Of a DNA stretch of 64,000 nt, positions 33,670-33,689 are shown piece by piece. This DNA comes from Escherichia coli (GTDB lineage Bacteria > Pseudomonadota > Gammaproteobacteria > Enterobacterales > Enterobacteriaceae): NCBI RefSeq assembly GCF_003334335.1, contig NZ_QOWQ01000003.1. One strand, written 5' to 3'. Position 1 is the first letter of the stretch. The number at the start of each line of letters is the position of its first letter. The translations under genes were made by a program, and so were the position numbers. The notes under the pieces were generated by a model. It was not told where the DNA came from and did not search any database. It worked only from the letters and a program-made list of their open reading frames with translations.

Positions 33670-33689
33670 CACTGGATAGATAACCAGCA
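33670..33689. promoter_or_regulatory. LexA-box-like palindrome upstream of cho
   Basis: cACTGGatagataaCCAGca: a CTGG-N8-CCAG variant of the CTGT-N8-ACAG consensus, 14 bp upstream of the cho GTG start. Confidence 0.55.

Follow-up and report, generated by a model that had tools for sequence, protein, structure and literature searches.

The SOS boxes of Escherichia coli consist of an invariant CTG and an invariant CAG with 10 bp between them, set in the 20-bp dyad TACTG-N10-CAGTA. The site analyzed here lies upstream of cho (ydjQ, b1741) and is a LexA operator that was already known and catalogued. In Table 4 of PMC3009722 the sequence TACACTGGATAGATAACCAGCATTC is given as the cho LexA motif, among motifs located 5' of UV-induced genes, and a second motif 5' of cho, CCGCCTCTTTT, appears in the same paper. 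In the SOS review PMC6590174, cho (ydjQ) stands under "Known SOS box" with reference to Fernandez De Henestrosa 2000 and Courcelle 2001. Transcription of uvrA, uvrB, cho and uvrD is described as being under LexA regulation (PMC3820734), and in Salmonella the ydjQ gene, with one box of HI 6.69, was induced 3.33-fold by nalidixic acid (PMC8072944).

Direct binding of LexA and LexA dependence at cho are taken here from secondary citations. Our literature search returned no usable E. coli LexA ChIP data mentioning ydjQ. The gene is also absent from the text of PMC5999292, where no half-life of LexA on its operator was found, and it is unmentioned in the bioRxiv paper on single-cell LexA promoters.

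The operator and the cho locus

All positions below refer to the window, that is, the whole 64-kb stretch of DNA that was analyzed. The features of the cho promoter region and gene are as follows:

33665..33673, + strand: putative extended -10 element TGtTACACT, with TG at -14/-13 and TACACT at -11 to -6; from conservation and the position of the transcription start site (TSS)
33670..33689, no strand assigned: LexA operator (SOS box) of cho, CACTGGATAGATAACCAGCA, covering -9 to +11 relative to the cho TSS; from the weight matrix, the published motif and 79/79 orthologous loci
33679, + strand: cho TSS (G), base 10 of the LexA box; from SMRT-Cappable-seq (PMC6131387)
33693..33696, + strand: Shine-Dalgarno sequence GGAG, 6 nt 5' of the GTG; from direct reading, with GGAG kept across orthologues
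33703..34590, + strand: cho (ydjQ, b1741), encoding excinuclease Cho of 295 aa, with a GTG start; from the open reading frame, NCBIfam NF007833 and the RefSeq annotation

Direct reading of the + strand gives CACTGGATAGATAACCAGCA as the 20-mer at 33670–33689, and the 20-base site written cactggatagataaccagca falls exactly on the same positions. CTG occupies 33672–33674 and CAG 33685–33687, with the 10-bp spacing required of an E. coli-type SOS box, and 13 nt separate the end of the box from the GTG of cho. The core of the box is CTGG-N8-CCAG, in which G and C replace the T and A of the consensus CTGT/ACAG, while seven of the eight inner base pairs (ATAGATAA) are A/T. Thus, a 20-mer with this core just 5' of the GTG, as described by the sequence-only reading, is confirmed. 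The same reading had called the site a perfect dyad, which does not hold: self-complementary positions number 12 of 16 in the core and 12 of 20 overall, and complementarity is complete only in the 4-nt arms CTGG/CCAG.

The product of cho, a homologue of the N-terminal part of UvrC, matches the NCBIfam equivalog model NF007833 "excinuclease Cho" over residues 1–287 of 295, with 579.7 bits where the cutoff is 367; UvrC models match only the N-terminal ~200 residues, with scores below their cutoffs. The window is chromosomal DNA of E. coli. A 401-nt stretch around the site, in which nadE and cho are the annotated features, matches each of the 5426 complete E. coli genomes; the gene order is chbC-chbB-osmE-nadE-cho-ves-spy-astE.

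Several other features of this neighbourhood should be mentioned. The genes cho (+ strand, end at 34590) and ves (- strand, annotated at 34550–35125) are convergent, and their 3' ends overlap by 41 bp (34550–34590). In the nadE-cho spacer, positions 33553–33595 of the + strand match Rfam RF02751, the ES036 (CssrF) sRNA, at 42.9 bits (gathering score 37.6). The same spacer contains a naRNA4/REP-like match below threshold on the minus strand (33513–33549), as well as an imperfect 19-nt inverted repeat (33504–33522 / 33527–33545, region 33504–33549) that resembles a REP-type palindrome.

Score of the site as a LexA box

The bare pattern CTG-N10-CAG occurs 29 times in the window, compared with 12.95 ± 3.29 expected from dinucleotide shuffles, and none of 100 shuffles reached 29. 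Four of the 29 sites are of the CTGG..CCAG type, the three besides cho being located at 12671, 22428 and 39884. This roughly two-fold excess presumably reflects base composition or codon usage and calls for caution against LexA box calls made from the bare pattern. Since the pattern is not diagnostic, we used a symmetrised position weight matrix (PWM) trained on the 17 other LexA boxes of PMC3009722 Table 4, with cho excluded.

As a match to this matrix the cho site is exceptional. It scores 19.54 bits, the best match in the 64-kb window, and a score of at least 19.54 bits was reached anywhere in only 7 of 1000 first-order-Markov random sequences of 64 kb. With the same 17 sites as reference, the cho box has an HI-type index of 7.93 (range 0.6–12.8). 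In a leave-one-out PWM ranking the box takes the 10th place among 18 published boxes, ahead of those of lexA, sulA, ruvA, uvrD, dinB, dinG, ftsK and polB. Its spacer is AT-rich, and its matrix score lies inside the range of experimentally established boxes. The case confirms that the sequence-only reading was able to recognise a genuine SOS box.

The second and third ranks in the window belong to the tandem ydjM boxes (15.3 bits at 20365 and 12.2 bits at 20347). Since ydjM is a catalogued SOS gene (PMC6590174), with two boxes in its Salmonella orthologue (PMC8072944), these sites serve as an internal positive control for the matrix. The two ydjM-type boxes, CACTGTATAAAAATCCTATA and TACTGTACGTATCGACAGTT, overlap at 20347–20366 and 20365–20384 and lie directly 5' of the open reading frame 20387–20989, which encodes a ydjM-type metal-dependent hydrolase.

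Conservation of the box among cho orthologues

One genome per species was scanned, and 80 cho loci with protein identity of 69–98% were found. They belong to Escherichia, Salmonella, Citrobacter, Enterobacter, Klebsiella, Raoultella, Kosakonia, Lelliottia, Leclercia, Phytobacter, Franconibacter, Pluralibacter, Cedecea, Buttiauxella and other genera. Enough upstream DNA was present at 79 Enterobacteriaceae loci, and in every one of them the best match to the LexA matrix is a CTG-N10-CAG that ends 11–16 nt (mostly 12–13) 5' of the start codon. The proposal of the sequence-only reading that LexA controls cho through this operator, and that cho belongs to the SOS genes, agrees with published knowledge and is independently backed by the PWM, by the TSS position and by these 79 promoters.

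When the upstream regions were stacked with the box as anchor, CTG and CAG were invariant (about 2 bits) and the spacer carried about 1 bit per column, while the sequence farther upstream was unconserved. In the stack of 78 sequences, 47 have G and 31 have T as the fourth base of the half-site; at the partner position there are 51 with A, 26 with C and one with T, and the consensus T/A is found at both positions in 26 orthologues. Because these fourth positions vary while CTG/CAG do not, selection keeps a LexA box at cho, and not the G/C variant as such.

Within sampled E. coli, the common SNPs at the cho locus lie outside the box. The clinical isolate 538 (NZ_OW967795.1) has the sequence CACTTGATAG..., with a G-to-T change at window position 33674 in the left CTG, which is otherwise invariant. 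This left-arm change is predicted to represent a natural operator-down allele with derepressed cho.

Promoter and transcription start

According to Supplementary Data 2 of PMC6131387 (SMRT-Cappable-seq), the operon b1741 has its TSS at genome position 1823491 on the forward strand. The genome-to-window offset is 1789812 (the cho GTG at 1823515 corresponds to 33703), and the intergenic nadE-cho region is 100% identical to that of E. coli K-12 MG1655, so that this start falls at 33679. The start predicted from the motif TGnTAnACT was approximately 33679–33681, and the published one is located 6 nt past the hexamer.

Sigma-70 promoters of the extended -10 (TGn) class carry TG one base 5' of a hexamer with A2 and T6, and their TSS lies 5–9 nt downstream; TGtTACACT has both this sequence and this spacing. 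The hexamer TACACT overlaps bases 1–4 of the cho box, i.e., its left arm. The TG lies seven and six bases 5' of the CTG cytosine and is kept in 76 of the 79 cho upstream regions, while TA, four and three bases 5' of CTG, completes a hexamer TA(C/T/G)ACT in all 79. Both dinucleotides lie outside the LexA 20-mer, and the columns adjoining them are unconserved. LexA cannot account for this conservation of TG and TA, and TGtTACACT, including its TG, probably acts as a promoter element. The assignment of the cho promoter draws on one TSS data set and on conservation.

A simple sigma-70 scan of 33400–33800 revealed no promoter or terminator, because no -35 match is present. The missing -35 is typical of the extended -10 promoter class. 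In the supplement of PMC4782308 (Cappable-seq), whose TSS table was possibly incomplete as examined, neither coordinate system yielded a start close to cho.

The pair TTGTCA (33627–33632) and TAATCG (33650–33655) was considered as a cho promoter and rejected: it implies a TSS at about 33662, whereas the mapped one is at 33679, and its hexamers are unconserved. A block, CCGCCTCTTTTTTAA, at 33638–33652 is conserved across genera; it lies about 20 nt 5' of the box, in the -35 region of the cho promoter. Within it, CTCTTTTT (33642–33649) is complementary to AAAAAGAG at 33499–33506, beyond the REP-like insert. The block may be a remnant of the T-tract of a nadE terminator.

Besides the b1741 transcript, Supplementary Data 2 of PMC6131387 lists a "novel" nadE-cho read-through operon (b1740|b1741) that starts at 1822427 (window position 32615). 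Therefore, some of the cho mRNA may originate elsewhere than at the promoter under LexA control. Together with the failure to find a canonical -35 at cho, this transcript could be taken to mean that the box serves mainly as a LexA roadblock to read-through from the nadE promoter, and not in occlusion of a cho promoter. We consider this improbable, given that a separate b1741 TSS maps within the box and that a conserved extended -10 lies at the correct distance from it. The two modes are not mutually exclusive, and some contribution of a LexA roadblock is possible alongside promoter occlusion.

Strength of the operator and timing of induction

The sequence-only reading also made a statement on the strength of the box, which was said to be a variant, weaker operator derepressed only on strong SOS induction. 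The box does show six mismatches to the idealised consensus TACTG(TA)5CAGTA. Moreover, since Cho is a back-up nuclease, a role restricted to heavy damage is biologically appealing. Nevertheless, the idea that LexA, through a weakened operator, holds cho silent up to strong SOS induction is very hard to reconcile with the following data.

CTGG half-sites are common, making up 7 of the 34 half-sites of the 17 other published boxes, and ruvA has both CTGG and CCAG. Culyba et al. (PMC5999292) varied operator residues 14 and 15 and found that strong binding of LexA is favoured by A or C at residue 15, but not by G or T; the authors rationalised this preference by a contact to Asn41 through a bridging water. 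Residue 15 corresponds to the first base of ACAG, i.e., the fourth half-site position at issue in the cho box, where C is as favourable as A. The G/C at this position is thus common, biochemically tolerated and, as described above, unconserved among orthologues, of which 26/78 have T/A at both positions. The substitution itself stands, but with C15 well bound and the site ranked 10th of 18, it lends little to the terms "variant" and "weaker"; judged by its matrix score, the cho operator is mid-range and not weak.

The proposed timing reverses the relation between affinity and induction. In the standard model, promoters with weaker affinity for LexA are activated earlier, at higher LexA concentration, and are shut off later (PMC5999292), while the tightest boxes, such as that of umuDC (HI 2.77), belong to late, heavy-damage genes (PMC6590174). 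A weaker box thus means that derepression sets in earlier or at a lower dose. Over time after ciprofloxacin, cho was already up at 10 min with a log2 fold change of 0.92 (dinG, 0.98) and reached a maximum of 1.59 (PMC11002266). Such a prompt response of low amplitude agrees with the standard affinity-timing model, and derepression confined to strong induction is not supported. The rule that links affinity to timing at LexA operators is commonly inverted, and these considerations correct this.

RNA structure and chance occurrence

The palindrome might alternatively form an RNA hairpin in the cho leader that acts on translation or stability, with no function as a DNA operator. The centroid fold pairs CUGG with CCAG, and the whole palindrome would be included in nadE-cho read-through transcripts. 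However, the minimum free energy (-6.3 kcal/mol, z = -0.09) is unremarkable, 88 of 200 shuffled sequences folding equally well, and the TSS at 33679 is inside the palindrome, so that transcripts from the cho promoter are devoid of its left arm. In addition, the fourth-position pair cannot form in 30 of the 78 orthologues (G/A in 25, T/C in 4, T/T in 1) and shows no covariation, while an AT-rich spacer that varies between unchanging CTG and CAG is the signature of LexA. The probability of this explanation is negligible.

Finally, a chance origin of CTGG-N8-CCAG from E. coli composition, without a regulatory role, is effectively refuted despite the frequency of CTG-N10-CAG and the three other CTGG..CCAG sites in the window: the matrix score is rarely equalled in random sequence, the box keeps its distance from the start codon in 79/79 loci while the surrounding bases drift, and the site is published as a LexA site (PMC6590174, PMC3009722).

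Proposed mode of action

We conclude, with a probability of about 0.95, that this site serves the cho (ydjQ) promoter of E. coli as its LexA operator (SOS box). To the LexA dependence and damage induction of cho, which are known from the literature, the present analysis joins the sequence of the site, its matrix score, its conservation and its overlap with the mapped TSS.

A LexA dimer would occupy CTG-N10-CAG and cover, from -9 to +11, a sigma-70 promoter of the extended -10 class that lacks a recognisable -35. As the box lies over the TSS and the -10 element, we infer promoter occlusion as the mechanism: in the undamaged cell, bound LexA would sterically keep RNA polymerase off the -10 region and the start site. 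On DNA damage, self-cleavage of LexA stimulated by RecA* would lower the LexA level, the operator would become empty and cho would be transcribed. Cho would then provide UvrAB-dependent excision repair with a second nuclease for the 3' incision. With an operator of middling strength, incomplete repression and prompt, low-amplitude induction would be expected, and not late induction.

Some base pairs are common to the operator and the promoter. Position 1 of the box coincides with base 3 of the -10 hexamer, where the genera have C, T or G, and the fourth base of the half-site coincides with discriminator position -4 (G/T). Tentatively, it can be imagined that these shared base pairs co-tune repression and promoter strength by lineage, and that LexA additionally acts as a roadblock to nadE read-through, so that the dosage of cho would be set by two LexA-sensitive routes; at present we regard this combined scheme as rather unlikely. 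For the rest, the significance of the site goes little beyond its correct annotation, and no new question is opened by it. The map obtained here, with a box at -9 to +11 on an extended -10 promoter, present Enterobacteriaceae-wide and with the G/C positions free, may be handy for modelling the kinetics of SOS promoters.

Comparison with known LexA boxes

The site is the same sequence at the same locus as the catalogued LexA box of cho (ydjQ, b1741) (PMC3009722 Table 4; Fernandez De Henestrosa et al. 2000, via PMC6590174). What is added to the catalogued site is an explicit map, in which the box overlaps an extended -10 element, and a cross-genus footprint.

Among the other boxes, that of ruvAB, CGCTGGATATCTATCCAGCA, is similar to the cho box in having CTGG-N8-CCAG with CA/CG flanks and in belonging to a DNA-repair SOS gene, and the two score almost equally with the same matrix (19.1 bits for ruvAB and 19.5 bits for cho). 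It differs in serving another gene and another promoter; for the ruvA promoter, dependence on an alternative sigma factor was suspected (PMC5999292).

The ydjM boxes resemble the cho box in their location immediately 5' of an open reading frame (20347–20366 and 20365–20384), but there are two of them, they overlap, and each has a lower score.

The canonical strong boxes of umuDC, sulA and sbmC (TACTGTATATAAAAACAGTA type) share with the cho box the CTG-N10-CAG, an AT-rich spacer, binding of the same LexA dimer and overlap with the promoter. Unlike the cho box, they have CTGT/ACAG and TA flanks and score 22–29 bits, while cho is mid-range; they bind LexA tightly and belong to late, heavy-damage genes (PMC6590174).
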